From positions 2,160 to 64,368 of the forward strand of contig CAYZPO010000001.1 in the NCBI GenBank assembly GCA_964480695.1: a stretch of 62,209 nucleotides of DNA, read 5' to 3'. Under the pieces are notes generated by a model that saw only the letters and a list, made by a program, of their open reading frames with translations, ran no database searches and was not told where the DNA came from. Every line of letters starts with the position of its first letter. Within the stretch, counting starts at the first letter, position 1. Source of the stretch: an uncultured Gammaproteobacteria bacterium (GTDB lineage: Bacteria > Patescibacteriota > Patescibacteriia > UBA9934 > CAZDDW01). Of the stretch, positions 757-39,647 are shown piece by piece. The translations under genes and the position numbers were made by a program.

Positions 757-761
757 ATTTC

Positions 762-3079: not shown

Positions 3080-3262
3080 AGGTCGCCTCATATACGATGA
3101 GGCGACATCCAGGCATGGGAGGACCGAGGCGAGCATGAGGAATCCGGAGATGATGAGTCTTCACCTTCCAGGGTAGCAGTTCAGCACAGCCTGACAAGGC
3201 TGGGTTTCTGTTGGGTTATCCACAGCTTCGTCCCCCTCGGAGAGCAACCACCACCGAACAAG

Positions 3263-4852: not shown

Positions 4853-4999
4853 CTTGCCCTGTAGTCCCCAAACTCAGCAGCAAGAGGTAAACCGCATGTG
4901 CTTCTTGGAAGGTGGGCTTGCAGTCAACTGAGGATAGTCAGCGGAGCGAACACCCGTCTCTCCATTTCAAGCTTGCTTTAGATGTGTTTGTTTCAGAAA

Positions 5000-8493: not shown

Positions 8494-8631
8494 TAGCTCA
8501 TCTCAATGTCGGCGAATACCTCTCCAGTAATGCTATTCACTACGCAGAACCAGACTAACACATCGCACAAGTGTGAACCAATCGTTGATGTGGATCTGGA
8601 AATGAAAGTTACAAATAATAACGGTTATGAA

Positions 8632-8654
8632 AGGCACCACGTCACGTGGTGCCT
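8632..8654 (-). terminator. Palindromic hairpin overlapping the stop of the nuclease gene
   Basis: AGGCACCACGT-C-ACGTGGTGCCT has perfect 11-bp arms. On the minus strand it is followed by TTTCATAACCGTTATTATTT. Confidence 0.35.
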
Positions 8655-21274: not shown

Positions 21275-21804
21275 TATCCTTCTCCTGGGAGCACTTCGTA
21301 CCCAAAGACCGCATGAATGGCACTCGCTGATGATTCTTTCGCGAATATTTTGCCGAGCGCGCGGGAGAGCTTGCGTGTCTCCTTCTCCCATTCATTGGAA
21401 GGGCTGGCGACTCCGCCATTTGCGATTATTTTTCCCTCAATCAATGTAATGGCACCACATGTCGAACCGTAGCCTAGTCCCTGCCAAAATGGACTCTGCC
21501 AAGCGCCAAGACCGTTCGCAATTCTCGGTCGCCAGGAAGGATGTCGATGGCAGAGAGTGGTAAGGCGACCTCGTGAGTTCTTCGGAAGTCTCCTTCGGAT
21601 GTCCCCCGTTAGCATCATCGCGGTTCCAACGATAGCCCAGAGCACAGGTACTCCCTGCTGTTCGCCGCTGCGGTCCTTGCGGCGTTGCTCTTGGTATCCA
21701 TCCGCAAGCCAATACACAACCAACGCAACTAGCGCCGGATTCGCGTGGGCAAATAGGTCGAGGCTGCCCATCTGATCTAGATAGCTATCACGCCTTTGAA
21801 CCAT
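21274..21804 (-). CDS. ABC-3C middle component (assigned by position)
   Basis: ORF 21274..21888; start ATG 21804 (MVQRRDSYLDQMGSLDLF) preceded by GGAGGGGGTGA. Sandwiched and overlapping between the effector-CTD gene and the ATPase gene, as in ABC-three-component operons. Confidence 0.55.
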   Translation of the reverse strand: MVQRRDSYLDQMGSLDLFAHANPALVALVVYWLADGYQEQRRKDRSGEQQGVPVLWAIVGTAMMLTGDIRRRLPKNSRGRLTTLCHRHPSWRPRIANGLGAWQSPFWQGLGYGSTCGAITLIEGKIIANGGVASPSNEWEKETRKLSRALGKIFAKESSASAIHAVFGYEVLPGEG

Positions 21805-23005
21805 CACCCCCTCCAGTTGATTTCGTGATGAGTTTTCGAAATCGCGGGTGCCATCCGATTTGTGGAGGCATTTCTGGGCCGTCAGCAAGGATATGGAATG
21901 TGCCGGCGTGCAAATGCGTAGGTGCGTGGTTCCCGCTGATCACTGAATTCTTGCCCATACAGTCGTAGTAAGTTCGTAGTCCGCACTCTTGGTCAGTGGA
22001 AGCTAGGTGCTCAGCGCGCGATTGAGCAATACTCCACTGGTTCCGCAACTCGCTTTCGTGGTCCTGAATATCCTGTCGTCCAACGAGATCTTCGTCGAGA
22101 AGTCGGCCGCGCTCCTGTTTTGCCTTGTGGAAGAAATCGATTGCCTCGAGACGTGCCTTCTCGGATGCATCTATCAGCTCAAGTTGTCTTTGATAGGTAC
22201 GGGATGCCTCGCCAGCAGCGATCAATTCGTTCGAGTCGATATGGGCATCCGCGTAGGCAAAGCGCAGGTCAACCTTCGAGCACGTCTGGAACAGCGAATA
22301 TAGCGCGCGTTTTTGTTCAAAGCCCCGTATCCTCATGCCTGAGTGCGTAAGCCTCTCGCTAACGCAGTCGATGTACCAACCCTGCAGCCTCTCTCTGAAC
22401 TCGACCAGTTTGTGGGCTGGCACAGCATCTCGAGCAAGCGCTCGCTCCATTGCGGTTGATAGAGCGGCGATACCGACCTCTTCGCAAATCTGCAAATGAC
22501 GTAGTAGTTCGAGCCGGTCCTCGTCTTCTAGACCAAGCCAGTACTCAAACCGAGTGACTAACTCCTTGTTGGCCTTTGTGGCAGCAATTGTATCTAACTT
22601 CACTAACAGCGACTGTATTTGTTCCTCGGAACCTGATTGTGTCGATGTCAGACATTGAAGATCGTCGCACACAACTCGATTCGTCGCCAACCGGAGGCGA
22701 GGCCAATAGGAGTATTTGTTCTTCTTGCTGGCCCAGAGCCCGAGTGCCTCCCATAGACAGCGTGTTTTTGTTGTCAGCGCGCCATCATTGAGCGAGTGCT
22801 TGTCTTGCTCCATGATGGAAACGTCACCGGGGGCTGTGAGCACGCCCAAGTCGTCGTGCTCTTCCAGAGTCAGGGTCTGCTCGGGGTCCATGTCCAACAG
22901 TCGTAGTAACCCGAGTTGAACTTGCCATATGTAACCAGCGAGTGGGCCCCCGGCTGAGTCTTTCCCCATGAACGCGATGTTGCCGACTCTGATTCGAGAG
23001 GTCAA
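21788..23005 (-). CDS. ABC-3C effector: N-terminal DUF4297/Cap4-like nuclease domain plus C-terminal ABC-3C-type domain
   Basis: GGPLAGYIWQVQLGLLRLL...TLEEHDDLGVL...IMEQDKHS fits the G.GY.YQ ... E..DD ... Q.K endonuclease pattern. The remainder is helical. Confidence 0.6.
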   Translation of the reverse strand: MTSRIRVGNIAFMGKDSAGGPLAGYIWQVQLGLLRLLDMDPEQTLTLEEHDDLGVLTAPGDVSIMEQDKHSLNDGALTTKTRCLWEALGLWASKKNKYSYWPRLRLATNRVVCDDLQCLTSTQSGSEEQIQSLLVKLDTIAATKANKELVTRFEYWLGLEDEDRLELLRHLQICEEVGIAALSTAMERALARDAVPAHKLVEFRERLQGWYIDCVSERLTHSGMRIRGFEQKRALYSLFQTCSKVDLRFAYADAHIDSNELIAAGEASRTYQRQLELIDASEKARLEAIDFFHKAKQERGRLLDEDLVGRQDIQDHESELRNQWSIAQSRAEHLASTDQECGLRTYYDCMGKNSVISGNHAPTHLHAGTFHILADGPEMPPQIGWHPRFRKLITKSTGGGDGSKA

Positions 23006-23147
23006 GGCCTACGCGCAGAGCCGAAACGAAGTTTGGTTTGCACCGAACCAGAGCGCATACAGTGCCCCCGGAAACAGCGAACTATCAGGTGTCTGTGGAA
23101 ACTCGAAAGCGGAAAGGCAACCGTGTGCCGCCCCTAAGCACGTCATC

Positions 23148-23170
23148 TGCAAGACAGTCTTGCAAGACAG
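23148..23170 (+). repeat. Two tandem TGCAAGACAG boxes (putative integrase arm-type sites, left arm)
   Basis: TGCAAGACAG at 23148-23157 and 23161-23170 (13-nt period), 70 nt from the tRNA-like core. Confidence 0.6.
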
Positions 23171-23239
23171 CGGCAATAAGGGCGGGTGAATAAACGGCCT
23201 TGAAATTCGCTAAACGCTTGTTATCTAAGGCTTTTTACC

Positions 23240-23284
23240 TGGAGCCGGGAAGCGGACTCGAACCGCCGACCTGCTGATTACGAA
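23240..23284 (-). other. tRNA-Thr(CGT) 3' fragment (anticodon loop to CCA): att core, not a functional tRNA
   Basis: The reverse strand reads TTCGTAA-TCAGC-AGGTC-GGCGG-TTCGAGT-CCGCT-TCCCGGC-T-CCA. That is anticodon loop, 3' anticodon stem, variable loop, T-arm, 3' acceptor strand and CCA. The upstream sequence (..GGGGCAC) cannot form the D-arm, 5' acceptor strand or 5' anticodon stem. Confidence 0.7.
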
Positions 23285-23338
23285 GTGCCCCATGGCGACG
23301 TTTTTACCTGTACTTACAGGTACTTAGCATGCACGGTT

Positions 23339-23379
23339 TGTCTTGCAAATGCACCGTTTTGCACCCATTTGCAAGACAG
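23339..23379. repeat. 13-bp inverted repeat carrying two more TGCAAGACA boxes (right arm)
   Basis: TGTCTTGCAAATG (23339-23351) and CATTTGCAAGACA (23366-23378) are separated by a 14-nt spacer. They lie between the tRNA-like core and the integrase gene's 3' end. Confidence 0.7.
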
Positions 23380-23459: not shown

Positions 23460-24677
23460 TCAACTCTGCGAAATCCCCACATCTTGGGCGCTGCCCTGGC
23501 GGTTCGAAGTCAGGCCCATCCGCAGCATGACTTCAGCCTTGTGCTCGTCGGTCACGTGAGCGTAGATCTCATCGAGCATCCGTCCTTCCTTCCATCCTCC
23601 CAATTCCATCAAGGTACGTCGGTCCACACCGGCCATGGCCAGGCGAGATGCCCAGGTGTGCCTCAGCCCATGAGGATGGATGACCGGCAGACCAGCCCGC
23701 TTGCAGGCCCGGCGAAGCGACTGACCGAAGTCGTTGCGCGGCTTGTCCGGATTGGTTGGGGCCGGGAAGATCCAACCGCTACCCGGTGCCCCTACCCTCT
23801 CGTGGGCCGCTCGGAGCTCATCGCGCAACTCCGGCGTCAATGGCACGACTCGGCTTCTTCTCGTCTTGACTTGGAAACCGGACTCCTGCTGCGGTCCGAT
23901 GAACAACGTCCCCACCGGCCCGTCGTTCCATCGGATGTCCTCCCAACGACGGGAGAGAATTTCTCCCTTGCGTGCCCCGGTGTTCAGCGCCATGAGCACG
24001 GCCAGGTAGGTGATCCGGTCCCGCGTGATGGGTGGCCGGCCACGCGTGACCCGGTGCGGCTGCTTCTTCAGCGGCCGCAGTTCGTCGAGCAGCTTCACGG
24101 ACTCGGCTTCGGTCAGGTATCGGTGCGGCTGCTGGTCGTTGATCTTGACCGTGGGCAGCTTGGGCACGTCCTCGATCACCTCACAAGCCTCGGCGTGTTT
24201 GAGCGCACCGCGCAGACACCACAACTCGATAGCCAGAGTCCGAGCCCTTCGCCCAGCGTCCCTTCGCTTGCTGAAGTACGCATCGACGACGGCATAGTTG
24301 ACCTTGTCGATGGGCAGCTTACCCATGATGTCGATGAGGGCATTGGCTGACGTGCGGGCGCTTCGCGCCGTGCTGGCTGCCTTGTCACGCTTGACCACGG
24401 GCAGATAGACGTTTTCGAGGTACTCGGCCAGAGTTGGCGTACTACTCGCTGGCACCGGAGAGGAAACGACGGAAGTCCTTGGCACGTCCATTTCGCCGGC
24501 GGCCATCTTTCCCTCGAACACCTTCAGCAGCCGTCTCGCCTCGGCTGCGTCCAAGAACCCGATAGCCCGGGTGTGGGTCTTGCTGCGTTCGCCCCTCCAA
24601 CAGATGGACCAGTAGTTCTCCTTGCTGTCCGTCTCCGGATTCTTGCGCTTCCTCTTGTGAAGCCAGGCCATCGCCAT
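23460..24677 (-). CDS. Tyrosine integrase, phage/ICE type (integrase 2)
   Basis: Arm-binding-like N-terminus (YWSICWRGERSKTHTRAIGFLDAAEARRLL), core-binding domain, and catalytic HGLRHTWASRLAMAGVDRRTLMELGGWKEGRMLDEIYAHV. Confidence 0.85.
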   Translation of the reverse strand: MAMAWLHKRKRKNPETDSKENYWSICWRGERSKTHTRAIGFLDAAEARRLLKVFEGKMAAGEMDVPRTSVVSSPVPASSTPTLAEYLENVYLPVVKRDKAASTARSARTSANALIDIMGKLPIDKVNYAVVDAYFSKRRDAGRRARTLAIELWCLRGALKHAEACEVIEDVPKLPTVKINDQQPHRYLTEAESVKLLDELRPLKKQPHRVTRGRPPITRDRITYLAVLMALNTGARKGEILSRRWEDIRWNDGPVGTLFIGPQQESGFQVKTRRSRVVPLTPELRDELRAAHERVGAPGSGWIFPAPTNPDKPRNDFGQSLRRACKRAGLPVIHPHGLRHTWASRLAMAGVDRRTLMELGGWKEGRMLDEIYAHVTDEHKAEVMLRMGLTSNRQGSAQDVGISQS

Positions 24678-25134
24678 TCTCCCTACTCAACCCCAATGCT
24701 GTTGCCAACCGCTCTCGATGCAACCTCCAGGTGCGCCCTGCGCGGATTGCGGCTGTTTCCAGCTTTCCTTCTGCGAGCAAGCGGCGCAGGAGCCTCTCGC
24801 TCACCTGAAGTTCTTCAGCGGCCTGACGAATGGTCAACCACTGCGAGCCATCGCGGTTTGCATCCCCATGATATCGAGATCTATGACCTTGTACGAGGTC
24901 TTTTTTGTGTTCTACGACTTCGCGCCTGGCGCCAATGGCGACCATGACCTCCCCCCAGGAGTAGATCGCTTCACCGGCAGCCTCTCCAACGGGCTCGACG
25001 GCGGCAGTCAGCCAGGCTCGTGCCTCTGTCGGTAGACCGGGCAGAGCCTCCACAGCCTCCTCCAGCGTCAACAACGACTGGGGCGTCAGCGATGCCCGCC
25101 ACATGCGGCGCAGGTAGGTGCGCAAGGAGGACAC
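24442..25134 (-). CDS. Excisionase/MerR-like HTH protein (3' end uncertain; the ORF runs 236 nt into the integrase gene)
   Basis: WLTIRQAAEELQVSERLLRRLLAEGKLETAAIRAGRTWRLHRERL is the Xis-type 'HTH_17' pattern. The Arg/Gly-rich tail that overlaps int may not be genuine protein. Confidence 0.5.
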   Translation of the reverse strand: MSSLRTYLRRMWRASLTPQSLLTLEEAVEALPGLPTEARAWLTAAVEPVGEAAGEAIYSWGEVMVAIGARREVVEHKKDLVQGHRSRYHGDANRDGSQWLTIRQAAEELQVSERLLRRLLAEGKLETAAIRAGRTWRLHRERLATALGLSRENGDGLASQEEAQESGDGQQGELLVHLLEGRTQQDPHPGYRVLGRSRGETAAEGVRGKDGRRRNGRAKDFRRFLSGASE

Positions 25135-25250: not shown

Positions 25251-25508
25251 TTACGAGACTCGCTTGGAGCGCTTTCGGCGCGACTTGACGAGCCTCCAGC
25301 AGTCTGGGTTCTCCTTGTCCTGGACGAACCAAGGACACTCGCGGAGTACCCGTTCCAGGAACTTCTCGAACGGTTCGCCCGTGTCTTCCACGGTTTCGAT
25401 CCAGAGAACTTCCCAGATCCACTGCTCGAGCTTGCCCCTGTGATGCGCCTTTTCGTCGGCCATCACGTCGGCCAACAGTTCCTCCAGGGTGAACATGGAT
25501 TCGGTCAT
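25251..25508 (-). CDS. Small acidic hypothetical protein (85 aa)
   Basis: MTESMFTLEELLADVMADEKAHHRGKLEQWIWEVLWIETVEDTGEPFEKFLERVLRECPWFV... Balanced composition, unlike the overlapping Arg/Gly-rich frame. Confidence 0.5.
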   Translation of the reverse strand: MTESMFTLEELLADVMADEKAHHRGKLEQWIWEVLWIETVEDTGEPFEKFLERVLRECPWFVQDKENPDCWRLVKSRRKRSKRVS

Positions 25509-26141: not shown

Positions 26142-26402
26142 CTACACCTCGGTAATCAGAATGCGATCGCCACGACTTGTGACGAGATGCCAGACGCCAG
26201 AACCAGGATCGTCTTGAGCGATCCTTTTCGACTGCTGGCAAGTACGCCGAACGGTAGCCGTGAACGTCCGCGGAACGGTCAGTCCGAACTCTCTGCGCAC
26301 CCTCTCGACCTCTGGATAGAGATCGGAGAAGTGTGCTTTTCCGCCGAGGCGAAATAGAGCTTTGAGAACTGACTGTTCCCAGGTCTGCGTGGTCGTGGGC
26401 AT
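26142..26402 (-). CDS. Small winged-helix-like protein (86 aa), Mrr-N-like
   Basis: TWEQSVLKALFRLGGKAHFSDLYPEVERVRREFGLTVPRTFTATVRRTCQQSKRIAQD..GVWHL. Confidence 0.45.
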   Translation of the reverse strand: MPTTTQTWEQSVLKALFRLGGKAHFSDLYPEVERVRREFGLTVPRTFTATVRRTCQQSKRIAQDDPGSGVWHLVTSRGDRILITEV

Positions 26403-26693: not shown

Positions 26694-27647
26694 TCATCGC
26701 GCATCTCCTCGCGCTAAGGACCGGGGATTGTGTTTTACAAAAAACCTTGGGTTCTGCGGGGTTGCGCGACTTTCCCTGGTACAACTGTTGTAGCAGTTCG
26801 TTGTACCAGGCAGGAGCGGGCTCTCCTCGGCGAGAACGGCCCGTTGCCCACCGTCCACAAGACGCGGTGTTCGCCACAGCTGGCCGAGGATGTTGCGGCT
26901 GGTGAGTTCCTGGGCCAGAGCGAAGTACCACAGCCCCTCGGGCGCGTCCGCATCCCACAGTGCGGTGACCAGGCGGTTTCTTCGCCGCACGGTCGGTACG
27001 GTGCAGCAAACCCGCCACTCGCTGCAGCCAAGAACGGTCTGCCCAGCTTCCTTCATCTGGGTGTAGGGCTCCACCTTGTGCGTGACCACGTAGCTGGGGG
27101 ACTCGTTGCCGCAGTCCACCTCGAAGGCGACTGCAACGCGTTCGGCGGCCTCCCGCGTGAGCACGGCGATGGCGTCGGGGACCTGCACCCCCTCGCCACG
27201 GCCTACCTGAGCGCGGATGTCCTTCTCCAGCAGAAACGTCTCGAGAGAAACGCGTTTGGACCGGGCAGTGGCCACCGTGAGCGCGGCGTACAGATCCACG
27301 GTGCGAGCATGGTGCTCGAGGTTCACCCGCCCGATGCCCCGCATGGAGCGATAGTCGGCAGGCGTGCGCCCGAACGCCCGGGCCAGAACCGGCTTGGCAG
27401 CGGGGGTCAAGGTGAACCAGGAGACCTCGTGTAGCGCTCGCACATGGACTTGGATGTAGCCGAGGTCTCGCAGCTTGCGCAGCGACCTTCGAGCGATGTG
27501 GGGGTTCACGTCCAGCAAAGCGGTGTAGTGCTGGGTCGAGATGGGCTGGGCGTGAGCGATGAAGGCCAGGGCCAGCTTCTCACGAAGCGTCAGCCGTGCG
27601 TTTCCCGGTGATCGGCGCTGGGTACGGCTGGGACTGTCCAGGGTCAT
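26694..27647 (-). CDS. Replication-relaxation family protein (paralogue 2)
   Basis: ORF 26694..27731; start ATG 27647 in an ATGA overlap with the upstream gene. LTLREKLALAFIAHAQPISTQHYTALL (wHTH), NLEHHARTVDLYAAL, VPDAIAVLTREAAERVAVAFEVDCGN. Confidence 0.65.
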   Translation of the reverse strand: MTLDSPSRTQRRSPGNARLTLREKLALAFIAHAQPISTQHYTALLDVNPHIARRSLRKLRDLGYIQVHVRALHEVSWFTLTPAAKPVLARAFGRTPADYRSMRGIGRVNLEHHARTVDLYAALTVATARSKRVSLETFLLEKDIRAQVGRGEGVQVPDAIAVLTREAAERVAVAFEVDCGNESPSYVVTHKVEPYTQMKEAGQTVLGCSEWRVCCTVPTVRRRNRLVTALWDADAPEGLWYFALAQELTSRNILGQLWRTPRLVDGGQRAVLAEESPLLPGTTNCYNSCTRESRATPQNPRFFVKHNPRSLARGDAR

Positions 27648-27991
27648 CGGTTCATCCCGCTCAAGGGGCTGGTGACCGCCAGTCCACAGGCGCAGTTGAC
27701 CGCGTGCGGCACCTCGCCGCAGTGCGGGCACTCCGCGAACCCGTGTCCCTCATGAACCAGGCGACAGACCGGGCAACGCCAGGCGCCGATCAGCTCGACG
27801 GCGTGACCTCGTGGGCAGTGTCCGACTCTTCGTCGAAACGCCCACTGGACGCTCAAGTAGGTCACGACCGCGCGGGAGGCGTCGAGGCCGAGCGTGAACG
27901 GCAGTACACCCAGGGCCAGCGTCGCGACGAACAACTGTAGCAGCAGCGATCCGCGCAGCGCACCTACGCCATCGAGTAGCCAGCGCGTCAT
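27644..27991 (-). CDS. Membrane-anchored zinc-ribbon protein (115 aa)
   Basis: TM segment LLLQLFVATLALGVLPFTLGL, then HCPRGH..CPVC..CPHC..CAC. ATGA overlaps at both ends. Confidence 0.55.
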   Translation of the reverse strand: MTRWLLDGVGALRGSLLLQLFVATLALGVLPFTLGLDASRAVVTYLSVQWAFRRRVGHCPRGHAVELIGAWRCPVCRLVHEGHGFAECPHCGEVPHAVNCACGLAVTSPLSGMNR

Positions 27992-29562
27992 TCGGGCAGC
28001 TCCAGACCGGGCCGAGCGGTCCTTCGGCGCCTCGAGCGCTTTGTCTTGCTCGCGCCAGGATTCGCGCTGCGAGTTTTTCGGGGTGTTCTTGGGCTCTGGC
28101 TGGCTCTCCTCTCCCGAGTTTGCGCTTGGGCGCCATCTTGACCTCCGCCCAGAACCTGGAACGTGGTGTTTGGCACTTCCGGGGCCTCGGGCGTGCCATC
28201 CGACACGGCCACTGGTGTGGCTGCCAGCTGGTCCACCGGCACTCCGAACCTGCCGCGTCGGAACTGTTCGATGGTGGCTGGATCGAGCTGTTCAGCCTCG
28301 CGACGGGCGCGCTCGAACGGCACGGACAGGGTTCTGATGACGCGAGCTTGGCCCGAGACCATGTCCCCGAGCAGGGCGTGCCGGGGAGGAAGTCGGGTCA
28401 GGGCGTCAAGCAGCATCGTCCGTTCCTGGTCCTTGGTCAGCAACTGGTCAGGAAGCTGCGGGTTCACGCGCCGACCCGTGATGGGCAGCAAGGGTAATAG
28501 GTGCTTGATGTCCCCCAGATCCGGCCGGAACGCCACATGCAGGGCGATGTTGGTGATGAGCGAGCGTGTCAAGGAGCTGGACACCGCGTCGATTTGGGCT
28601 GCAGCCTGGTTACACAACCACAAGCCCACCTTGCGGTAGCGCGCCTGGGACAACAAGCGCTCGAAGTCCTCAGCTGCTCCCGGAGAAGGCAGCAGCGTCT
28701 GCCACTCGTCCACCGCCAGGATCACGGGCCGGGTGTCTGGTTGCACCGGCCGGCTGAACACGGCGCCAGTGAGCAAGGAGAAGACGAACGAACCCACAAA
28801 CCGGCTCAGTGGTGCCATGCCCTGCGGAGCTCCGCCCAGATCCACGACGGTGATGCCGGACTCCAGCAGGTCCGAGCCACGCAGACACGTGGGTGCGCAC
28901 AGCATCCCGCGCATGGCCGGCAACAGCAGCAGCCACTCCAGCCGAGCGCGCAGGGAGTCGCGAGAGGCCTTGGGCTCGGTGGCGAACGTGCTGAGCAGGT
29001 AGTCGCGGACTTCCGGATCTCGCACACGGCGAGCGATGGCCTCGCGGTAGTCGTCGTCGTTGAGGATGTGGATCAGGTCGTGAAGACCTCCTCCCACCTC
29101 GATCACGGCCCGGGCGAGCCAGGCCAAGATGCCGCGCATCCGCGGTCCGAGCCCGCCATCCACCAGGCCGTCCACTTGCGAGCACAGCAGGTTGGCCTGG
29201 ACCTCGATAGGCAGACCGGGGATACGACACAGTGGATTGAGGCCACTGCCGAAGCGGCCGAACAGCTGCAGCGAAGATACGCGGGACGCTGCCAAGTGAG
29301 GATGACGCTGGGCCAGCAGAGGCAGGAACCTGTCGCGCAGCAGCTCTGCAGTCTCGCCTTTCGCATCCACCAGGACTACGCCGATCCCAGGATGTGCTGT
29401 GAGCAGCTTGAGCAGGATGCTGAGCAGGAATCCACTCTTTCCCCAACCCGTGGAGCCGGTCACCAAGGCGTGGCGGCAGAGGGTTGAAAGTGGCAGCTGC
29501 AGGGATTCCTCTCCCGCCGCCCCGCGAGTCATGCCCACCGCGATCTGTTCATGGCGCGCCAT
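27988..29562 (-). CDS. TraD/VirD4/FtsK-HerA-like P-loop ATPase (coupling-protein-type DNA translocase)
   Basis: ORF to 29727; start ATG 29562 with AGGAGGTG SD. Walker A LVTGSTGWGKS, Walker B VILAVDEWQTLL, RKVGLWLCNQAAAQI. Arg/Ser-rich C-terminal tail. Confidence 0.65.
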   Translation of the reverse strand: MARHEQIAVGMTRGAAGEESLQLPLSTLCRHALVTGSTGWGKSGFLLSILLKLLTAHPGIGVVLVDAKGETAELLRDRFLPLLAQRHPHLAASRVSSLQLFGRFGSGLNPLCRIPGLPIEVQANLLCSQVDGLVDGGLGPRMRGILAWLARAVIEVGGGLHDLIHILNDDDYREAIARRVRDPEVRDYLLSTFATEPKASRDSLRARLEWLLLLPAMRGMLCAPTCLRGSDLLESGITVVDLGGAPQGMAPLSRFVGSFVFSLLTGAVFSRPVQPDTRPVILAVDEWQTLLPSPGAAEDFERLLSQARYRKVGLWLCNQAAAQIDAVSSSLTRSLITNIALHVAFRPDLGDIKHLLPLLPITGRRVNPQLPDQLLTKDQERTMLLDALTRLPPRHALLGDMVSGQARVIRTLSVPFERARREAEQLDPATIEQFRRGRFGVPVDQLAATPVAVSDGTPEAPEVPNTTFQVLGGGQDGAQAQTRERRASQSPRTPRKTRSANPGASKTKRSRRRRTARPGLELPE

Positions 29563-30181
29563 GCCCACCTCCTGGGAACATCCCGATCTCATCCTCAGCT
29601 GGGGTGCCAGCGAGAAGTGGCTCAGGTGCCTGTGGCACTCCAGCTGGAACAGCCCCGTGCTCGAGTTGCGGTGTAGGTTGCATGGGCTCGGTGATTGGTG
29701 CGCGCACGCGGAAGGTCGGTCGGACACGCACCGCGGGAACCGGAAGCGCGGCTCGGACCTTAACCAACAACAGGAACACGCCGACCACGCATACGAGGAC
29801 GAGGACGACCATGGCGCAGGCGAGCAGCACGCCCAGAGGCACCATGACCCACGTCGGATCTACCTGCTGCAGCTCGCCTGGCACCTCGACTCCAGCCAGG
29901 TAGGCGCGTGCCAGCTGGATGGTCGCCTGGGTTGCCATGGCGGTGCCCATCCAGATCACGAACAACGCGGCCAGCCCGGCGCACACCTTCCACAGCGTGC
30001 TCGTGACCTTCTTGATCCCGAACAGGCTCAAGCCCACAGCGGCGAACGCACAGGCCGTGGCCAGCGGGATGAAGATCGGTCCGGCCGGAAACCCGACGAT
30101 CCCGGCGAGCGCGGTGAACGCAGCCAGCACACCCCAGACATGAATCGACTTCACCACAGCCTCCAGGACGCGTTGAGCCAA
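29549..30181 (-). CDS. Polytopic membrane protein with a Pro-rich C-terminal tail
   Basis: Five hydrophobic segments by eye. Start is either ATG 30181 or GTG 30154/30157 (GTGA overlap with the JAB stop). Confidence 0.55.
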   Translation of the reverse strand: MAQRVLEAVVKSIHVWGVLAAFTALAGIVGFPAGPIFIPLATACAFAAVGLSLFGIKKVTSTLWKVCAGLAALFVIWMGTAMATQATIQLARAYLAGVEVPGELQQVDPTWVMVPLGVLLACAMVVLVLVCVVGVFLLLVKVRAALPVPAVRVRPTFRVRAPITEPMQPTPQLEHGAVPAGVPQAPEPLLAGTPAEDEIGMFPGGGHGAP

Positions 30182-30840
30182 TCTTGCTTTTCAAGCTCGG
30201 AAAGCAGATCGAGGTGTTGGCTCACGTCCGGAATCTCGTCGTCGCCGGCTGCAACATCGAACTCGCAGCTCGCAACCTCTACCTCCCCGGAATGTCGGTC
30301 CACGAGTGCGAGCCGCTGGGCATCCGGTCCCAGGTACACGCCCAAGCCCTCGGTGTCATTTCGGGTCGGGTCCACTACGATCCCCACTGCGTTCGGCGAG
30401 GTAAAAGTGGCTTGCGTATCGCAGTCCGTGGCACTGTAGTGCGTCCCGTAGCCTGGGTGGCTGTGCCACCACCCAACGACCTCGGCAATGGGATGGGTTT
30501 GTCGAACCTCCTTTCGCAATGCGGCCATGACCGACAGATCCGCCCAAACGAACGCGCGCTGGGCATCTGCTCCCTGGGCCTCGATGGCAGCGACGACCAA
30601 GACGAACGGTCCTTGGCCGTCCTGGCAGGGCCGGCCGACCAGCAACCCGATCGTCTCGCGTAGGGCGCTAGCTCTGGCCCATCGCCACATGACCTCGACG
30701 ACCTTCGCAAGCACATAGATCTCGGCGCAAGAGCGATCATGGTCAAACGCCAGCCACTGCTCCTCCTCGGGCAGTGGACGGGGCCTTGCCAGCGGAGACG
30801 CTCGATGGATACCCATGGATTCGAACATGGCCATCATCAC
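30151..30840 (-). CDS. JAB/MPN (JAMM) metallopeptidase, deubiquitinase-like
   Basis: Complete JAMM motif: upstream Glu (ALRETIGLLVG) and WWHSHPGYGTHYSATD (H-x-H-x7-S-x2-D). The start overlaps the E2 stop (GGGAGGTGATG). Confidence 0.8.
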   Translation of the reverse strand: MMMAMFESMGIHRASPLARPRPLPEEEQWLAFDHDRSCAEIYVLAKVVEVMWRWARASALRETIGLLVGRPCQDGQGPFVLVVAAIEAQGADAQRAFVWADLSVMAALRKEVRQTHPIAEVVGWWHSHPGYGTHYSATDCDTQATFTSPNAVGIVVDPTRNDTEGLGVYLGPDAQRLALVDRHSGEVEVASCEFDVAAGDDEIPDVSQHLDLLSELEKQDWLNASWRLW

Positions 30841-31496
30841 CTCCCTTGGATTTGGAATCTGGCACTAGGTTGACTGGGCGCACACGCATGGGTGCGGACC
30901 TTGAACGCCGGGCGAACTTGTGCAGGTGTTGCTCCGTGAGTGATGTGCTGTGGAAGCTGGGGGTAGAGCAAATTGGGGGTAATTGGGCGGCAGTTCATGA
31001 CTTGTTCCCAGTACCGAGCCGCCGCACCGCACCAGCCTGCGTAGTTGGGCCGATGTGGCTCGTCCCAGTTGAGAAGCCGAGCCACATGCACGGCCAGCTG
31101 AGCGAACAGCATCCCGCGCTTTGCCCGGCTCCAGCCATCTCCCAGGCAGACCGCGCCACTTCTTTGGTGGAAGTGCGGCGACCAAGGAATCGGGCGGGAG
31201 ACGACGCCGGCTACGGGCTCACTGTACGGATAGTTGCCTTTGGCCAGCAGGTCGAAGACCACAGTTGTACCCACGTGCGTCTGCCCCGGACCGATCATCG
31301 TGGGGATCTGGTAGGTCACCGCGTACACGCGAGCCTGGTGGCCGCGGCGGAGTGATTGGATTGGGGAGCGCCCACAGGAGGCATCATCCATTGAGCGGTA
31401 GGCGCTGACGTTCATCAGCGCGCTGCACATGGGCATGACGACCTCGTAGTCGAATTGCAGGCGCTCCCGACGTTGGGATGGGTTCAGACGGGGCAT
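30837..31496 (-). CDS. E2 (UBC)-like ubiquitin-conjugating-type protein
   Basis: SPHFHQRSGAVCLGD resembles the E2 HPN...G.IC(L/I) active-site loop. Positioned between the Ubl and JAB genes. Confidence 0.55.
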   Translation of the reverse strand: MPRLNPSQRRERLQFDYEVVMPMCSALMNVSAYRSMDDASCGRSPIQSLRRGHQARVYAVTYQIPTMIGPGQTHVGTTVVFDLLAKGNYPYSEPVAGVVSRPIPWSPHFHQRSGAVCLGDGWSRAKRGMLFAQLAVHVARLLNWDEPHRPNYAGWCGAAARYWEQVMNCRPITPNLLYPQLPQHITHGATPAQVRPAFKVRTHACAPSQPSARFQIQGR

Positions 31497-31765
31497 GGCA
31501 CCTCCCCTCGGGCACCCCCGGTGACCTGGACCACTTCGAGGGTGTCCCCATCACGCACACCGGCATGGCCGAGCGTCTGCTGGGGCAGCAGCTGCTGGCC
31601 CGTGCGTGAAAGCACCAGCGTGTAGGGTCTTTGCGCGTCGGTGGGTTCCAAGAACTGGTAGTTGACCATCTCCTGGATGGCCTGCTGGGCGGTCACCTGT
31701 TGTTCCAGGGTGACGGGGAGCGAGTCACTGGTGTTCGGACTCGTGAAAAGGACGTTGCATCCCAT
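31484..31765 (-). CDS. Ubiquitin-like (beta-grasp) protein with an internal C-terminal Gly-Gly followed by a 9-aa tail
   Basis: 93 aa: ...GVRDGDTLEVVQVTGG-ARGEVPCPV. GAAGGAGG SD. Its last 13 nt overlap the E2 start. Confidence 0.6.
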   Translation of the reverse strand: MGCNVLFTSPNTSDSLPVTLEQQVTAQQAIQEMVNYQFLEPTDAQRPYTLVLSRTGQQLLPQQTLGHAGVRDGDTLEVVQVTGGARGEVPCPV

Positions 31766-31778
31766 GAAGTAGCCTCCT

Positions 31779-33002
31779 TCAGGCTGGAGAATCGGCCGGG
31801 AAGAGGCTCATGCCCCTCTCGACCGGGTTGAACACGTCTTCGAGGTTGCCGGCGAGGCGAATCCAGCGATCGTCGTTGTCCCAGCTCGCCTGGATGATGG
31901 CCCCTGGGCCAAGGCCCAGCTCGGCTAGTGAACGGACTCTGAGGTTCTCGGCACGCTCTACGGTCAGGTCCGGCAGAATCCCAGCCGCTACGCTTTCGAC
32001 GTTCTCGTCCTTGTGGCAGGGCGCAGAACAGCGTGGGGCTTCGTGAACGGCCCACAGTGGTCGGCCCACGCTCACGGACCTACCGCAACGCGCACACGGG
32101 AGAGACTCGACAAATGGCGCTGGCAGATGGAGTTCCACTGGATCGTCATGGAGCGCTGCGAGCTCGGCGAAGATGTCTGCAGCGGCACCTTCGCCACCAG
32201 TGCGAATCTCGTGAGGCTCTGTTTCGAGTGGGTGATGAATCCCGGCACAGTCCGGATTGCTCGTCAGCTTGGCCAGAACCGATCGGCCCGTGCGCAGGTT
32301 GAGCGTCCATCGCTTTCCGGCAAGAGGAAACTCGTCGTGTAGGGCTGCGATTGCGGCGTCGGCAACCATGGCGCCAGACACCTGGGCTACGGCCTGCACT
32401 GCGGGTACGACCCCGGCAGCTTCGGCTTTTTTCGCGTACAGGGTGCATAGTCCCCGCTCGGTGCCATCTACCAAAGTGCCCATCGGACAGCGCCAACAGG
32501 GTTCGTTTTCGTCGTGATTGCGGAAGACCGAAATGGATAGGTTGAGTCCGTCGAAGCCAGCTTCCACGAATGGTGTGTGCAGCAAGCGGCAGCGCTCGGC
32601 CAGATACCCCCGGCCAACCTGGCTGTCCACAGCCGATACCACCACGTCAGCCCAGGTGATCAGGAGGTCGCCAACTTCCTGGACCTTCCCTTGATAGAAG
32701 TACGCGCGTGAGCGCGGAGCAGTCGCCAAGGCCAGGAAGCCCCGAGCCACCGCGTCTGCCTTGGGCGCATCCGCAACAAAAAACGGACTTCGCGTCCGGT
32801 TGGACGGTTCGAAGTCGTCGTAGTCCACGATGGCCAGCGTGCCGACGCCAGACAGAGCCATGGCCAGCGCGGCGTTCTGTCCCAGAGCTCCGGCGCCGAT
32901 GAGGGCGACGCGGGAGCCGAACAGGATCTCAGGCTCGTAGCCAGCCAAGCGCTCGCGAGAGAAGTGGTCAGTCGTGGGTATGACCATCGTTGGGTCCTCC
33001 AC
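31779..33002 (-). CDS. E1-like adenylating enzyme (ThiF/MoeB/UBA family)
   Basis: RVALIGAGALGQNAALAMALSGVGTLAIVDYDDFEPSNRTR (nucleotide-binding and Arg-finger pattern). CxxC pairs CWRC and CARC..CSAPC. Confidence 0.8.
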   Translation of the reverse strand: MEDPTMVIPTTDHFSRERLAGYEPEILFGSRVALIGAGALGQNAALAMALSGVGTLAIVDYDDFEPSNRTRSPFFVADAPKADAVARGFLALATAPRSRAYFYQGKVQEVGDLLITWADVVVSAVDSQVGRGYLAERCRLLHTPFVEAGFDGLNLSISVFRNHDENEPCWRCPMGTLVDGTERGLCTLYAKKAEAAGVVPAVQAVAQVSGAMVADAAIAALHDEFPLAGKRWTLNLRTGRSVLAKLTSNPDCAGIHHPLETEPHEIRTGGEGAAADIFAELAALHDDPVELHLPAPFVESLPCARCGRSVSVGRPLWAVHEAPRCSAPCHKDENVESVAAGILPDLTVERAENLRVRSLAELGLGPGAIIQASWDNDDRWIRLAGNLEDVFNPVERGMSLFPADSPA

Positions 33003-33312
33003 AGATCCAGCAGCGCGTTCCCTTCTGAACCGTTCCAGTCAGAAGGCGCGGTGCGGTTTGAGGTTGGGGGTGATTCCGGATTTCGCGTCGGTTCGCGCTG
33101 ACCGGGCGGAAGTGAGGCTTGATCGCGGCGACATTCATGGTCGTATTCTCACCCAGGACAGAAACTAGACTGCATAGGATCCAAACGACATAGACGATCA
33201 GCCCGAGGGGCGGGTACACACAAATCATGGGCAAGAAGAGAATTGCCAAGCAGCCGATGCAGCTGACCTGGCAACCCGTCTTGATTTCCTCGATGGTGTT
33301 GTTTTGGTTCAT
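32968..33312 (-). CDS. Small membrane protein (114 aa), first gene of the Ubl chain
   Basis: TM segments CIGCLAILFLPMICVYPPLGLIVYVVWILCSLVSVL. C-terminal CWICGG. Overlaps the E1 start by 20-35 nt. Confidence 0.4.
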   Translation of the reverse strand: MNQNNTIEEIKTGCQVSCIGCLAILFLPMICVYPPLGLIVYVVWILCSLVSVLGENTTMNVAAIKPHFRPVSANRREIRNHPQPQTAPRLLTGTVQKGTRCWICGGPNDGHTHD

Positions 33313-33442
33313 TTTCCGCTCTTCATCCTATTCTGACCGTAGCCTCCGAGCCGCTACCCATCAAGTACAATTCGCATCTTCATGCGGATTTGACGTTTTT
33401 CTTGCGGTGTGAGACAGTACCTGCAGCAGGCAGGAGCATGAG

Positions 33443-34522
33443 ATGGCAGGCAAGAAGCCCGGCGCAGGACCCTCTGCACGTGTGAGTCGAAGCGAGATCC
33501 TCAAGGCCGCTCGTAGGTTCTATCTAGGGGGAGAGACTCAGACGCAGATAGCCAAAGACATGGGTATTAGCCCAAGCTACCTTGCACGTCGTCTCAAGAA
33601 GGCCGTGGAGGACGGTTGGGTTCGTATCTACGTGGACACCGACCGTCAGACCGAGCTGGCAGCTCAGATCATGGAGAAGTACCCGCATCTGGTGCATGTG
33701 GAGGTGGTTCCCAGTGGTCCGACCTATCAGCACACGGCCTGGGCTCTGGGAACGGCAATGGCTCGATGGTTGGACGATATACTCGACAAGGACGAATCCA
33801 CCGGTGATCCGTTGATTTCCAATGTGGCTATTGGTGGAGGGCTAGTGCACCAATCCATGGTGGAGCAGTTGGTTCGACGGAAGAACCGCCTCAGTGTGGG
33901 ACCTACTGCGCTCACACCCCAGATGGGGCGTGTCGAACGGTTCAATGCGATCTCGCTGGCCACAACCCTGGCTCTCAAGTGGGGAGCACTGCAGTCTGGC
34001 TCACGCGATCCAGAAGAACGCGCGGGATACCTGTACTCCGGTACAGTGGAGCCGCCAGGCGATAGTCTCGAAGAGCTACGAGCTTGGTATCAGCGGCTGC
34101 AGATGAGGCCGGGTTACCTGGACATCCTGCGGTTTTGGAACCAGTTGGACATCGTTTTTATTGGCGCCGTGGACCTGGACTGGCGCTACAAGGACGTGCA
34201 CGATCGCCTCAAGCGCCTTGGATTGTCCATGCAGGAAATGGAAGACCGAGGGGCGGTGGCTATGCTGGGGAATAGGTTTGTGGATGCAGAGGGAAACGAG
34301 GTGTCACTGGCCGAGGGATTGCCGAGCTATGAGCCGGTGATGCCTACTGAGGCGATTCAGTCAGCTGAGAAGCGGTACGAGGAGTCGAAGGGTAAGCGGG
34401 GATTTGTTGTGCTGGACTTGTGGGGCGAGCCGGGGGAGAAGGTTGTGCGGTTACTTCAACATATGGTTGTAAATGTCGTCTTTATAGATCTACTCACTGC
34501 GGAGAAGCTTGTCCATAAATAG
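33443..34522 (+). CDS. SorC/DeoR-type transcriptional regulator (HTH plus sugar-phosphate-binding-like domain)
   Basis: ILKAARRFYLGGETQTQIAKDMGISPSYLARRLKKAVEDGWVRIYV is the SorC N-terminal HTH pattern. Long C-terminal effector-like domain. Divergent from the Ubl operon. Confidence 0.6.
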   Translation: MAGKKPGAGPSARVSRSEILKAARRFYLGGETQTQIAKDMGISPSYLARRLKKAVEDGWVRIYVDTDRQTELAAQIMEKYPHLVHVEVVPSGPTYQHTAWALGTAMARWLDDILDKDESTGDPLISNVAIGGGLVHQSMVEQLVRRKNRLSVGPTALTPQMGRVERFNAISLATTLALKWGALQSGSRDPEERAGYLYSGTVEPPGDSLEELRAWYQRLQMRPGYLDILRFWNQLDIVFIGAVDLDWRYKDVHDRLKRLGLSMQEMEDRGAVAMLGNRFVDAEGNEVSLAEGLPSYEPVMPTEAIQSAEKRYEESKGKRGFVVLDLWGEPGEKVVRLLQHMVVNVVFIDLLTAEKLVHK

Positions 34523-36167: not shown

Positions 36168-36284
36168 AAAGACGCACTACTCACCACTTCGGATCTTCCA
36201 GGTAGTGCTTCTGTCGATTACAGGTTGTTACGCGGAGTGGTCATCTACATGAAGAAGAAGCTGAACTCAAGCTTGACAAAATAG
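36168..36284 (+). pseudogene. Remnant of the 5' end of a second, lower-GC parB-like gene
   Basis: Frame reads KDALLTTSDLPGSASVDYRLLRGVVIYMKKKLNSSLTK*. Compare the intact gene's KGELITTTADLPGGASVDDKLLQQAVDEINDIYVRKGLE. About 75% nucleotide identity over ~70 nt. No start codon, and a premature stop. Confidence 0.6.
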
Positions 36285-36343: not shown

Positions 36344-37051
36344 ATGGCTGAATCCAAAGGCGAACTGATCACTACCACCGCGGATCTTCCCGGTGGTGCG
36401 TCTGTCGATGACAAGCTGCTCCAGCAGGCCGTGGACGAGATCAACGACATCTACGTGCGCAAAGGCCTGGAGATGTACCTGGACATGGGCAACTTCATCC
36501 TAGGCGCCTTCTTTGGCGGGGATACCGCCAAGTTCCTGGACGGTGCCAAGGACCACATGTCCTTCCGCGAGCTAGCCAACCGAGAGGACCTCATCCCCTC
36601 GTACTCCCACCTGTACAACGCGGTAGCCGTGGTCGGGCAGCTCCCCCAGATCCCCGAGGATCTCCGCGAGAGGCTCAGCGTGTCCCACCACAAGGCTCTT
36701 CTGCCGATGAAGGACGAGAAAGCCAAGGAACGGCTGGCCAAGAAGGCTGTGGACAAGGGACTGTCGGTGCCCGCCCTGCGCGCCGAAGTTCAAAAGGCCT
36801 TGTCCAAGCTGAAGGGCAAGAGTCGAGCTGGCCGCCCTCCCCTTCCGGGCTTCGTCAAGGGTATCCACAAGCTCGTCAAGGACATCGACGCCATCGAGGC
36901 GGTAGAGTTCGACGAGGACGAGTTCGAGCACTACTCGCCCACTGACGCCAAGAAGTTGCTGGTGGACCTCGAGGCCCAGGTCAAGGCTCTGGATACGTAC
37001 AGGCAGAAGGTCTACGAGCAGATCGAGGCGTGGGAGAAGGACAAGGAGTAG
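36344..37051 (+). CDS. ParB/KorB-like HTH partition-type protein (no obvious ParB/Srx N-domain)
   Basis: ..LSVSHHKALLPMKDEKAKERLAKKAVDKGLSVPALRAEVQKAL.. resembles the ParB HTH and following helices. The stop codon overlaps a parS-like palindrome. Confidence 0.45.
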   Translation: MAESKGELITTTADLPGGASVDDKLLQQAVDEINDIYVRKGLEMYLDMGNFILGAFFGGDTAKFLDGAKDHMSFRELANREDLIPSYSHLYNAVAVVGQLPQIPEDLRERLSVSHHKALLPMKDEKAKERLAKKAVDKGLSVPALRAEVQKALSKLKGKSRAGRPPLPGFVKGIHKLVKDIDAIEAVEFDEDEFEHYSPTDAKKLLVDLEAQVKALDTYRQKVYEQIEAWEKDKE

Positions 37052-38088: not shown

Positions 38089-38334
38089 ATGCAGATAGCT
38101 TCGCAGGCACAACCCGATCAGGAAGCCAACCTGCTGAACGTCAAGGACCTGGGCGCCTACCTGGGCATCTCCCCCTCGGCCGTGTACCGCCTGGTCGAAC
38201 GCCGGGACATCCCGGTTTACCGCCTGCGCAGTGGCCTTCGGTTCAACAAGGCCGACGTGGAGGCCTACCTGAACTCGCGCCGCATCGAGGCTATCTCTGA
38301 TAACGAATCAACTTATGGCAGTACGAATCATTGA
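38089..38334 (+). CDS. Excisionase-family HTH protein
   Basis: LLNVKDLGAYLGISPSAVYRLVERRDIPVYRLRSGLRFNKADVEAYL. Overlaps the integrase start by 20 nt. Confidence 0.75.
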   Translation: MQIASQAQPDQEANLLNVKDLGAYLGISPSAVYRLVERRDIPVYRLRSGLRFNKADVEAYLNSRRIEAISDNESTYGSTNH

Positions 38335-39572: not shown

Positions 39573-39647
39573 TGGTGACCCCAGGGGGAATCGAACCCCC
39601 GTTACTAGGATGAAAACCTAGCGTCCTAACCACTAGACGATGGGGCC
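39573..39647 (-). tRNA. tRNA-Glu (anticodon TTC), CCA encoded
   Basis: The reverse strand GGCCCCATCGTCTAGTGGTTAGGACGCTAGGTTTTCATCCTAGTAACGGGGGTTCGATTCCCCCTGGGGTCACCA folds into a cloverleaf. Anticodon stem CTAGG/CCTAG, loop TTTTCAT. Confidence 0.9.

Follow-up and report, generated by a model that had tools for sequence, protein, structure and literature searches.

Ubiquitin-like protein (Ubl) conjugation in bacteria, as known from Cap2 of the cyclic-oligonucleotide-based anti-phage signalling system (CBASS), from the bacterial ISG15-like (Bil) systems and from the bacterial ubiquitination-like (Bub) systems, has been established as real only of late and has so far always been tied to phage defence or stress. 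Bil systems were found experimentally to be anti-phage (bioRxiv 10.1101/2023.09.26.559546; PMC11601603), and pre-processing of the Ubl after its Gly by the deubiquitinase has been demonstrated for Type II Bil (bioRxiv 10.1101/2023.09.26.559546). Some of the E1-like/E2-like/JAB operons classified as types 6a-6e were noted to ride on conjugative elements (PMC1779556). A compact layout of coupling protein, relaxase, excisionase (Xis) and integrase (Int), including the combination of a MobC relaxase with a VirD4 coupling protein, has been described for integrative mobilisable elements (IMEs; PMC5357655). Here we analysed a locus on contig CAYZPO010000001.1 of assembly GCA_964480695.1, within a 62,209-nucleotide stretch that is called the window throughout, in which a Ubl-conjugation cassette is chained to a mobilisation core with a coupling-protein-type ATPase and a putative relaxase.

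The genes of the locus run unbroken on the minus strand from 33312 to 26694, on which the open reading frame (ORF) list and the sequence agree. They are as follows (window positions):

33312-32968, minus strand: TM0, small membrane protein, 114 aa
ATG 32987 (or GTG 33002) to 31779, minus strand: E1, 402 aa
31765-31484, minus strand: pro-Ubl, 93 aa
31496-30837, minus strand: E2, 219 aa
30837/30840-30151, minus strand: JAB, 228 aa
GTG 30154-29549, minus strand: TM1, membrane protein, 201 aa
ATG 29562-27988, minus strand: ATPase, 524 aa
27991-27644, minus strand: Zn-ribbon protein, 115 aa
ATG 27647-26694, minus strand: Replic_Relax protein, 317 aa

The initial annotation had described eight chained genes and their junctions here, and the ORF list and the minus-strand sequence bore this out, all eight minus-strand genes being present with the coordinates it had assigned. 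The E1 start is likelier ATG 32987, which lies behind GGAGGA and gives a 20-nt overlap with the TM0 gene. The E1 TGA (31781-31779) falls within GAAGGAGG, 8 nt ahead of the Ubl ATG (31765), and the Ubl and E2 genes overlap by 13 nt (ATG 31496, TGA 31486-31484). At the next junction E2 and JAB share GGGAGGTGATG / TGATG (E2 TGA 30839-30837; JAB ATG 30837 or GTG 30840), and the JAB TGA (30153-30151) overlaps GTG 30154, the TM1 start (shared GTGA). TM1 and the ATPase overlap by 14 nt (ATG 29562, TGA 29551-29549), preceded by AGGAGGTG, and ATGA overlaps join the ATPase to the Zn-ribbon gene and the Zn-ribbon gene to Replic_Relax. A promoter scan predicted no sigma-70-like promoter across 23.0-33.7 kb, and the terminator-like hairpins in that interval were few, weak and intragenic. 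The single-operon architecture proposed earlier, the downstream Xis, integrase and att-like site and the divergent regulator were likewise all present, as were the motifs read previously (GAGALG, two CxxC, VQVTGG followed by nine residues, PHFHQRSGAVC, HSHPGYGTHYSATD, GSTGWGKS and ILAVDE); the domain assignments held for every gene in profile, PDB-sequence and AlphaFold2 (AF2)/Foldseek searches.

The chain is made up of two modules, a five-gene Ubl cassette (TM0-E1-Ubl-E2-JAB) and a four-gene mobilisation core (TM1-ATPase-Zn-ribbon-Replic_Relax). TM0 was placed with the cassette because its layout recurs before E1, stand-alone cassettes included, and TM1 was grouped with the ATPase because its tail motifs recur in L014, an element without Ubl (relatives are cited by L and P numbers). 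The reading that we favour, with about even confidence, is that of an IME with a resident Bil-like conflict/defence cassette co-expressed with the transfer genes; we do not think that the cassette is a mechanical part of the transfer machine. The order coupling protein-relaxase-Xis-Int and the PF13814 identity of the relaxase support the IME reading (PMC5357655), the occurrence of cassette-only and core-only loci indicates that the modules are separable, and the component set and the C-terminal logic of the Ubl match those of anti-phage Bil, which favours a conflict role. In the proposed mechanism, one long translationally coupled operon would be read from a control region shared with a divergent helix-turn-helix (HTH) regulator. 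JAB would trim pro-Ubl at G84/A85 and would also remove tags; E1 would adenylate the exposed Gly of the Ubl, which would then pass as a thioester to Cys117 of E2, with His108 nearby, and on to target lysines without an E3, and TM0 would localise the tagging system to the membrane. After excision, the element would be nicked by the relaxase and passed to a helper type IV secretion system by the coupling ATPase, which TM1 and the Zn-ribbon protein would tether. The Ubl cassette would have an anti-phage or anti-rival-element function, analogous to that of Bil and switched on together with the transfer genes.

Among the cassette proteins, TM0 carries a hydrophobic segment at residues 12-57 and a C-terminal zinc knuckle, CWICG..HTH, at residues 101-113. 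The same layout, an N-terminal transmembrane (TM) helix and C[WF][VI]CG..H.H, precedes E1 in L001, L008 and L007; the L004 counterpart has a degenerate ICW knuckle, and weak matches were found in L017 and L018. No match to TM0 was obtained in Pfam, PADLOC or NCBIfam. TM0 probably holds the tagging machinery at the membrane and, as a conserved extra gene, may be the missing localiser or specificity factor. E1 matched ThiF in the Pfam profile search (8.8e-26, a single ThiF domain at residues 27-252) and is of the ThiF/MoeB type, with one adenylation domain and a C-terminal extension of ~150 aa with CxxC. Its motifs are GAGALG at residue 31, CWRC at 164 and CARC at 298, and among PDB sequences it comes nearest to ThiF and MoeB and to the adenylation domains of UBA7, Uba4 and SAE2.

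The pro-Ubl is a single beta-grasp of 93 aa that matched the YukD type (7.5e-7, above the Pfam cut-off), with weaker matches to Rad60-SLD and ubiquitin; its best PDB E-value was 0.5, and its sequence is not ubiquitin-like. Cleavage after G84 (VQVTGG / ARGEVPCPV) is predicted. The C-terminal motif conserved among the relatives is G-A, not GG, and G-A with a tail of 1-9 residues was present in 9 of the 10 aligned relatives, the L004 gene call being longer (137 aa), perhaps through read-through. Ubl-E2 fusions were found that are joined exactly at the conserved G-A (P0071, P0076, P0086 and P0102), and P0188 and P0196 are di-Ubl-E2 proteins. The fusions joined at G-A, together with the tails of 1-9 residues, imply that JAB must cleave after the Gly before E1 acts.

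No Pfam match to E2 was found at E<=0.1, and no NCBIfam or PADLOC model covers it. The motif PWSPHF..G.VCLG holds His108 and Cys117; Cys117 did not vary in either the 13-member or the 60-member alignment of the family, and His108 was invariant in the former and conserved in at least 90% of the latter. When a profile of the 13 homologues was searched against PDB sequences, eukaryotic E2s accounted for all matches (13/13), aligned on the PWSPHF..G.VCLG loop, and the motif aligned to UBE2W and UBE2K. The AF2 model of E2 had a predicted local distance difference test (pLDDT) score of 85.3, and its Foldseek top 50 were all UBC or ubiquitin E2 variant (UEV)-fold chains (E2s, two UEV variants and one E2-like FTS), with template modelling scores of up to 0.71, target-normalised. 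As modelled, E2 is a UBC fold with a eukaryote-like H..C active site. JAB matched Prok-JAB (2.7e-10) and JAB (1e-8), both over the cut-offs, and its zinc site is intact, E61 and HSHPGYGTHYSATD giving an exact JAMM HxHx7Sx2D (H125-S-H...S135..D138). Its closest PDB sequences were CSN5, Rpn11 and the archaeal Rpn11-like 6fju, all at ~1e-11, and the protein is a putative pro-Ubl maturase and deconjugase.

Fusion to TIR domains is characteristic of immune and conflict systems. Within the E2 family, an E2-TIR fusion (P0091; TIR_2 1e-24) and a Ubl-E2-TIR fusion (P0070; TIR_2 8e-27) were found in other metagenomes, which points to a conflict or defence role over a transfer role. In P0070 the loop GCPVH replaces G.VC, and the catalytic Cys may be shifted or lost. 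Defence-type neighbours, which also favour a conflict role, were ABC-3C/DUF3732 in the window, CBASS with HORMA in L017 and a STAND-like NTPase in L007; in L017 (GCA_047291895.1), positions 1819-4252 encode a CBASS-type SMODS cyclase, a bacterial HORMA protein and an AAA/TRIP13-like ATPase, 4 kb from the Ubl/transfer operon.

In the mobilisation core, TM1 is polytopic, with three hydrophobic segments and a Pro/Arg-rich cytoplasmic tail in which RPTFRVRAP...DE[IL]G[ML]F is common to L014, an element without the Ubl cassette. Analogous membrane proteins precede the ATPase in every relative, and TM1 is a probable membrane anchor for the ATPase. The ATPase has Walker A at residue 36 and Walker B at 281, matched DUF87/HerA at 3.8e-5 and is, by sequence alone, a diverged member of the FtsK-HerA superfamily. 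Precomputed matches to TrwB_AAD_bind, T4SS-DNA_transf and FtsK belong to its homologues; the window ATPase itself stays below the TrwB_AAD_bind and T4SS-DNA_transf models, which only the homologues reach. Its AF2 model (pLDDT 86.3) has an all-helical insertion at about residues 119-235, between the Walker motifs. Foldseek placed the DndH C-domain first, followed by chains of TrwB, the R388 coupling protein, in 27 of the next 28 ranks (E of ~1e-11 to 1e-10), with Cag-beta, HerA, VirB4 and DotL at lower ranks. No N-terminal hydrophobic segment was found in the ATPase, whose sole segment (residues 45-67) lies inside the nucleotide-binding domain; anchoring is possibly supplied by the upstream TM1. 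The ATPase is of a soluble TrwB/VirD4-like coupling-protein type. VirB4 and mating-pore genes were found neither in the element nor among the scanned window ORFs, and the element is therefore termed mobilisable instead of conjugative; a helper type IV secretion system may be encoded elsewhere in the genome.

The Zn-ribbon protein has a TM segment at residues 9-38 and the Cys/His pairs CPRGH, CPVC, HEGH, CPHC and CAC. Homologues lie between the ATPase and the relaxase in L001, L008-L010, L014, L015 and L017-L019, whether or not the cassette is present. The protein was considered as a RING-type E3, and this was rejected because it is conserved in elements without the cassette. Replic_Relax matched PF13814 at 7.8e-11 (42.8 bits against a cut-off of 25.3), and R54, R57, H112, P157, D158, E176 and K191 were invariant in 8 relatives. 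PF13814 is the MobC relaxase superfamily and is typed as MobC relaxase by CONJscan (PMC5357655), and it has a PD-(D/E)xK fold (PMC3424549); the conserved residues fit these published assignments. The protein is a putative MOBC-type relaxase (winged HTH plus PD-(D/E)xK). A reading as a type VII secretion system (T7SS)-like locus, in which the Ubl match to YukD is paired with an ATPase P-loop match to EccC, was rejected, as no other T7SS component was found; the processed Gly with E1/E2/JAB and the TrwB-like fold of the ATPase also counted against it.

The neighbourhood census consisted of 12 exact-protein look-ups; ten E2 lineages have known context, the window and nine others reached in this way. 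A word-indexed search had returned 13 E2 homologues, and a full hidden Markov model scan with E2 gave, out of 1.84 billion, 221 representative clusters at E<=1e-3, of which 112 reached E<=1e-30. The cassette was found with TM-ATPase-Zn-ribbon-Replic_Relax in 8 of the 10 lineages (window, L001-3, L008, L009, the P0010 contig, L017, L018 and L019) and without the core in the other two (L004-6 and L007). L019 is rearranged, with E1-Ubl-E2 divergent from JAB-TM1-ATPase-Zn-ribbon-Replic_Relax, and in the window, L001 and L009 a stop/start overlap joins the two modules. An accidental juxtaposition or an assembly chimera, in which the eight genes would not be one unit, could account for an element GC content unlike that of the flanks, a single att half-site and a metagenome-type contig. 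The gene set was, however, found in seven or more further samples, each time on an independent contig and in some cases in an NCBI genome assembly, and overlapping stop/start codons span every junction. We regard this explanation as vanishingly improbable and effectively refuted by the synteny census, which, with cassette-core linkage in seven other lineages, also answers the concern raised in the initial annotation that the arrangement might be a one-off or an artefact.

The core was also found without the Ubl cassette, in the closest relatives of the window ATPase, which retain TM1-ATPase-Zn-ribbon-Replic_Relax in L014, L012, L015/L016 and L010. In these elements the slot upstream of TM1 is occupied as follows:

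L014, ATPase 66% identical to that of the window: 13-gene array with SprT-like, trypsin-like, VWA, Tubulin_2 and CAP proteins
L012/L015/L016, ATPase 56% identical: unknown 650-700-aa protein
L010, ATPase 38% identical: unknown 650-700-aa protein

The L014 array (1-10014) consists of 13 co-directional genes, including trypsin-like/glutaredoxin and FtsZ-like Tubulin_2 genes, with no PADLOC match. The slot proteins of L010 (7574-9523) and L015 (7441-9495) are homologous, with 27.5% identity over 610 aa. Neither the 650-700-aa proteins of L010 and L015 nor several of the L014 proteins matched Pfam or PADLOC, and these scans did not reveal the slot as a defence hotspot. L008 (1-6257) and L015/L016 (1-6752) share divergent giant CHAT-protease/AAA_16-TPR proteins as well as a gene pair of ~215-290 aa, one member weakly PemK-like, which hints at a larger conserved backbone. 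A close downstream integrase was found in L010 and L015/L016, a Xis-like homologue downstream of the relaxase in L012 and an integrase ~7 kb on in L014; no integrase was found within the fetched flanks of L017, L018 and L019. Transfer RNA (tRNA) genes lie near some core relatives, with Int and tRNA-Arg in L010 and HTH_17, Int and tRNA-Asp in L001. The relatives derive from 'Deltaproteobacteria' metagenome-assembled genomes; ATPase-alignment scans returned 2 loci only in GTDB genomes and 2 only in JGI metagenomes. E2 and ATPase alignments found no relative among IMG/VR viral contigs, leaving a phage or satellite origin unsupported.

Around the chained genes, the element has the following further features:

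33443..34522, plus strand: divergent HTH regulator, SorC/DeoR-like (HTH_24 6e-6; Sugar-bind 5.8e-6)
33313..33442: presumed divergent control region, 130 bp, with an imperfect palindrome at 33369-33390 (hairpin scan)
26142..26402, minus strand: small conserved gene, 86 aa, with 51% identity to the ORF that directly follows L010 Replic_Relax
25251..25508, minus strand: small gene, 85 aa, ORF only, no family match
24442..25134, minus strand: excisionase-like HTH gene (HTH_17 2.1e-7; PHROG excisionase 9.1e-6)
23460..24677, minus strand: tyrosine integrase (Phage_integrase 1.2e-28)
23147..23379, minus strand: att-like region, with a tRNA-Thr(CGT)-like 3' half and two palindromes with TTGCAAGACAG

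The divergent regulator noted earlier is present, but its SorC-type label is marginal, with a Sugar-bind score of 26.1 bits against a cut-off of 27 beside the HTH match. It probably serves as the switch of the element itself; in clade A relatives its place is taken by a different divergent gene, which encodes ~230 aa and a Sigma70_r4-like HTH. The control region (33313-33442) showed no sigma-70 consensus promoter. The 86-aa gene has a weak match in L017 and no family match, and the true start of the Xis-like gene is probably internal to its ORF. The tRNA-Thr(CGT)-like 3' half (23290-23240) ends in CCA ~170 nt beyond the integrase stop, and its T-arm/acceptor 25-mer is unique within the window. 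Palindromes at 23147-23170 and 23338-23379 bracket this half-site, and all five window copies of TTGCAAGACAG fall in the att-like region, against 1.7 expected across the whole window. The flanking palindromes would fit an intact attP-like site better than an attL/attR junction. A second att copy was sought across the 62 kb of the window, by 25-mer (up to 3 mismatches), by direct repeats and by local alignment, and none was found, which leaves the far boundary and present mobility unproven; the element may have decayed, or the repeat may be too short to detect. The tRNA-Glu at 39.6 kb was rejected as the partner att site, being unrelated to the half-site, and Rfam found three tRNAs only on the window. 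No oriT-like or operator inverted repeat was found in 25.1-26.75 kb at the chosen thresholds.

GC content was 62-66% across the operon, compared with ~45-55% in the surroundings; it was 56-59% in the regulator and 43% right after it, and this drop suggests that the island probably ends near 34.55 kb. In the favoured reading, the region from 23.24 to ~34.55 kb is a high-GC, tRNA-targeting element of ~11 kb. The window is chromosomal, with gyrA and ftsH present. Directly beyond the att-like site, at 19349-23005 on the minus strand, lie a DUF3732 protein (680 aa, 1.3e-40) and beside it an ABC-3C CTD7-domain protein (405 aa, 1.8e-13), a separate conflict system adjoining the element. The other flank holds a ParB-HTH protein (36344-37051), a second tyrosine integrase (38315-39538) and tRNA-Glu (39573-39647), which suggests that another integrated element abuts. 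The two copies of a 45-nt direct repeat (36183-36227 / 36374-36418), 82% identical and spaced by 191 nt, lie on either side of the start of the ParB-like gene. The stretch from ~13 to 39.6 kb, including DUF932 at 13402-14547, looks like a mosaic island.

These surroundings bear on an alternative explanation, in which all nine genes are one defence system: a type IV coupling protein (T4CP)-like translocase and a PD-(D/E)xK nuclease effector would act against invading DNA, the Ubl cassette or another upstream module would be the sensor or regulator, and the integrase would belong merely to the island. T4CP-like domains act in this manner in DndFGH and in the methylation-associated defence system (MADS), and the best structural match of the ATPase is the DndH C-domain, with a PADLOC mad8 match at 3e-16 in addition to the HerA matches. 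Conserved catalytic residues of the nuclease, the defence-island setting, the integrase-free fetched flanks of L017, L018 and L019 and the absence of relatives from PLSDB plasmids would also fit. We nevertheless hold this explanation to be quite improbable: ATPase-relaxase-(small genes)-Xis-Int, on one strand and near tRNA sites, recurs in the window, L010, L012, L015/16 and L001, and this order is the described IME architecture (PMC5357655); PF13814 is typed by CONJscan as a MobC relaxase (PMC5357655). TrwB chains, moreover, dominate the fold matches below the first rank.

For the history of the association, ATPase and cassette trees were compared, both being simple distance trees. In the neighbour-joining tree of the ATPase, the window was nested among Ubl-less elements, and L001, L008 and L009 formed a separate deep clade, which L017-L019 join by BLAST. 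In the concatenated E1+Ubl+E2+JAB tree, L001+L008+L009 were united with 99.7% bootstrap support, and the window, L004 and L007 fell outside. These placements indicate that the cassette joined the core at least twice, or moved between element lineages. Seven of the eight linked lineages form one clade and hence do not represent eight independent events.

A further explanation is transfer-coupled tagging, which we rate as doubtful though a real contender. A membrane-tethered E1/E2/JAB set would modify TM1, the ATPase (at its Lys/Arg-rich tail), the Zn-ribbon protein or the relaxase; in a variant, the targets would lie in an incoming rival or in the recipient. In both cases DNA transfer would be gated, timed or excluded. 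Both modules occur together in 8 of the 10 lineages, a linkage tighter and older than is usual for cargo. Divergence within the large clade reaches ~50% identity in cassette and core alike, and the distances of the two modules are correlated (r=0.46, Mantel p ~0.013); in L019 the linkage outlasted the rearrangement, JAB staying in the transfer operon with TM1-ATPase. The two unions involve different ATPase clades, in both of which the cassette sits immediately upstream of TM1; the stop/start overlaps that join the modules in three lineages (window, L001 and L009), and the position of TM0, which would put the cassette at the membrane beside TM1 and the Zn-ribbon protein, point the same way. Against tagging of this kind, both modules stand alone elsewhere, the window's nearest core relatives are without the cassette, the TIR fusions in the E2 family indicate immunity, most of the linked lineages (7/8) are a single clade, and the analysis pointed to no target. 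The tagging of relaxosome or transfer proteins suggested in the initial annotation thus gained no direct support, but the retention of the linkage over deep divergence and through the L019 rearrangement speaks for it. Its fullest form is unlikely in our view: that Ubl conjugation is a working part of the DNA-transfer device, reversibly tagging the relaxosome/coupling complex, or competitor or recipient proteins, so that mobilisation is licensed, timed or excluded. If true, it would connect a ubiquitin-type modification with bacterial horizontal gene transfer for the first time.

The depth of the linkage, its survival in L019 and the constant place of the cassette upstream of TM1 also weigh against the IME with a defence cassette that we favour, and further findings do so as well. 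Mobility is unproven, with one att half-site, no second copy and no oriT found, and tblastn with the relaxase and the ATPase found no match on PLSDB plasmids. The upstream-slot alternatives are not recognisable defence systems by Pfam or PADLOC, the PADLOC Ubl-type models gave nothing beyond generic E1-E2 and JAB matches, and the ATPase has a defence protein, DndH, as its best structural match and matches mad8. If the cassette is defence cargo, an immune module has become fixed in one lineage of mobilisable elements and is co-expressed with transfer; if it acts on transfer, the locus would represent a new kind of control over horizontal gene transfer. The ~11-kb element should be tractable, with Ubl G84, E2 C117, JAB H125/H127, ATPase K42 and relaxase D158 as sites for point mutants.

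Compared with Bil (BilABCD), the locus likewise holds Ubl, E2, JAB and E1 in one operon without an E3 (PMC11601603). The Ubl has one beta-grasp only, which is also the case in most Type II systems, and its conserved Gly followed by up to 9 non-conserved residues would likewise imply pre-processing by JAB; the setting in a defence island is a further likeness (PMC11601603; bioRxiv 10.1101/2023.09.26.559546). In contrast, the E2 profile (60 members) aligned to E. aridi BilB with an hhalign probability of 0.4% (E=0.16), and His108 precedes Cys117 here, whereas in BilB the Cys comes before a conserved His (C-E-H-H in Type II). E1 has 402 aa and one adenylation domain, compared with 535 aa and inactive adenylation, active adenylation and catalytic cysteine domains (IAD+AAD+CYS) in BilD, and the two aligned only in the GxGxxG region (E=0.006 over 40 aa). 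The gene order TM0-E1-Ubl-E2-JAB, the extra membrane Zn-knuckle gene and the chained coupling-protein/relaxase module also differ. By sequence comparison, the cassette has the composition of Bil but no kinship to the one Bil system compared, that of E. aridi; the Bil-type composition noted in the initial annotation stands, without a sequence relationship, given the BilB result and the differing E1 architecture.

The operons of types 6a-6e of Iyer, Burroughs and Aravind 2006, including Bub/6E, resemble the cassette as mobile, sporadic combinations of E1-like, E2-like, JAB and beta-grasp genes (PMC1779556), and Ubl-E2 fusions also exist in Type I Bub (PMC11601603). The Ubl-E2 fusions of the present family resemble the BubAB type, but the E2 family differs. 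Neither a coupling-protein ATPase nor a relaxase is a conserved partner in any of the five types, and here E1, E2 and JAB are separate and E2 keeps both His and Cys. The lack of a Pfam family match at E<=0.1 means that E2 matches none of any Prok-E2 models that Pfam contains.

The core resembles IMEs in that a coupling-protein ATPase, a PF13814/MobC relaxase, Xis and Int lie on one strand with no mating-pore genes of their own (PMC5357655). It differs in its tyrosine integrase, class 8 of the streptococcal IMEs using a serine recombinase, and in a coupling protein that has no TM domain of its own and is encoded between TM1 and the Zn-ribbon protein; the core family has no member among PLSDB plasmids and has the Ubl cassette chained upstream. 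We take MobB/MobC of the CloDF13 type to be a comparable pairing of coupling protein and relaxase. The combined cassette-core arrangement was not described in the literature searched, which is not proof of novelty.

The Caldiarchaeum operon (Ub, E1, E2, RING, Rpn11) differs from the locus in its RING E3; the Ubl here is not ubiquitin-like in sequence, E2 falls under the Pfam UQ_con threshold, and the context is a mobile element. The likeness lies in JAB, which matched 6fju at 1.2e-11, about as close as CSN5/Rpn11, and in E2, whose profile and model match eukaryotic E2s best. Set beside these described systems, the locus adds a further E1/Ubl/E2/JAB family, with an unusually eukaryote-like E2 and JAB, and a recurrent operon-level fusion of such a cassette with a coupling-protein/relaxase mobilisation core.

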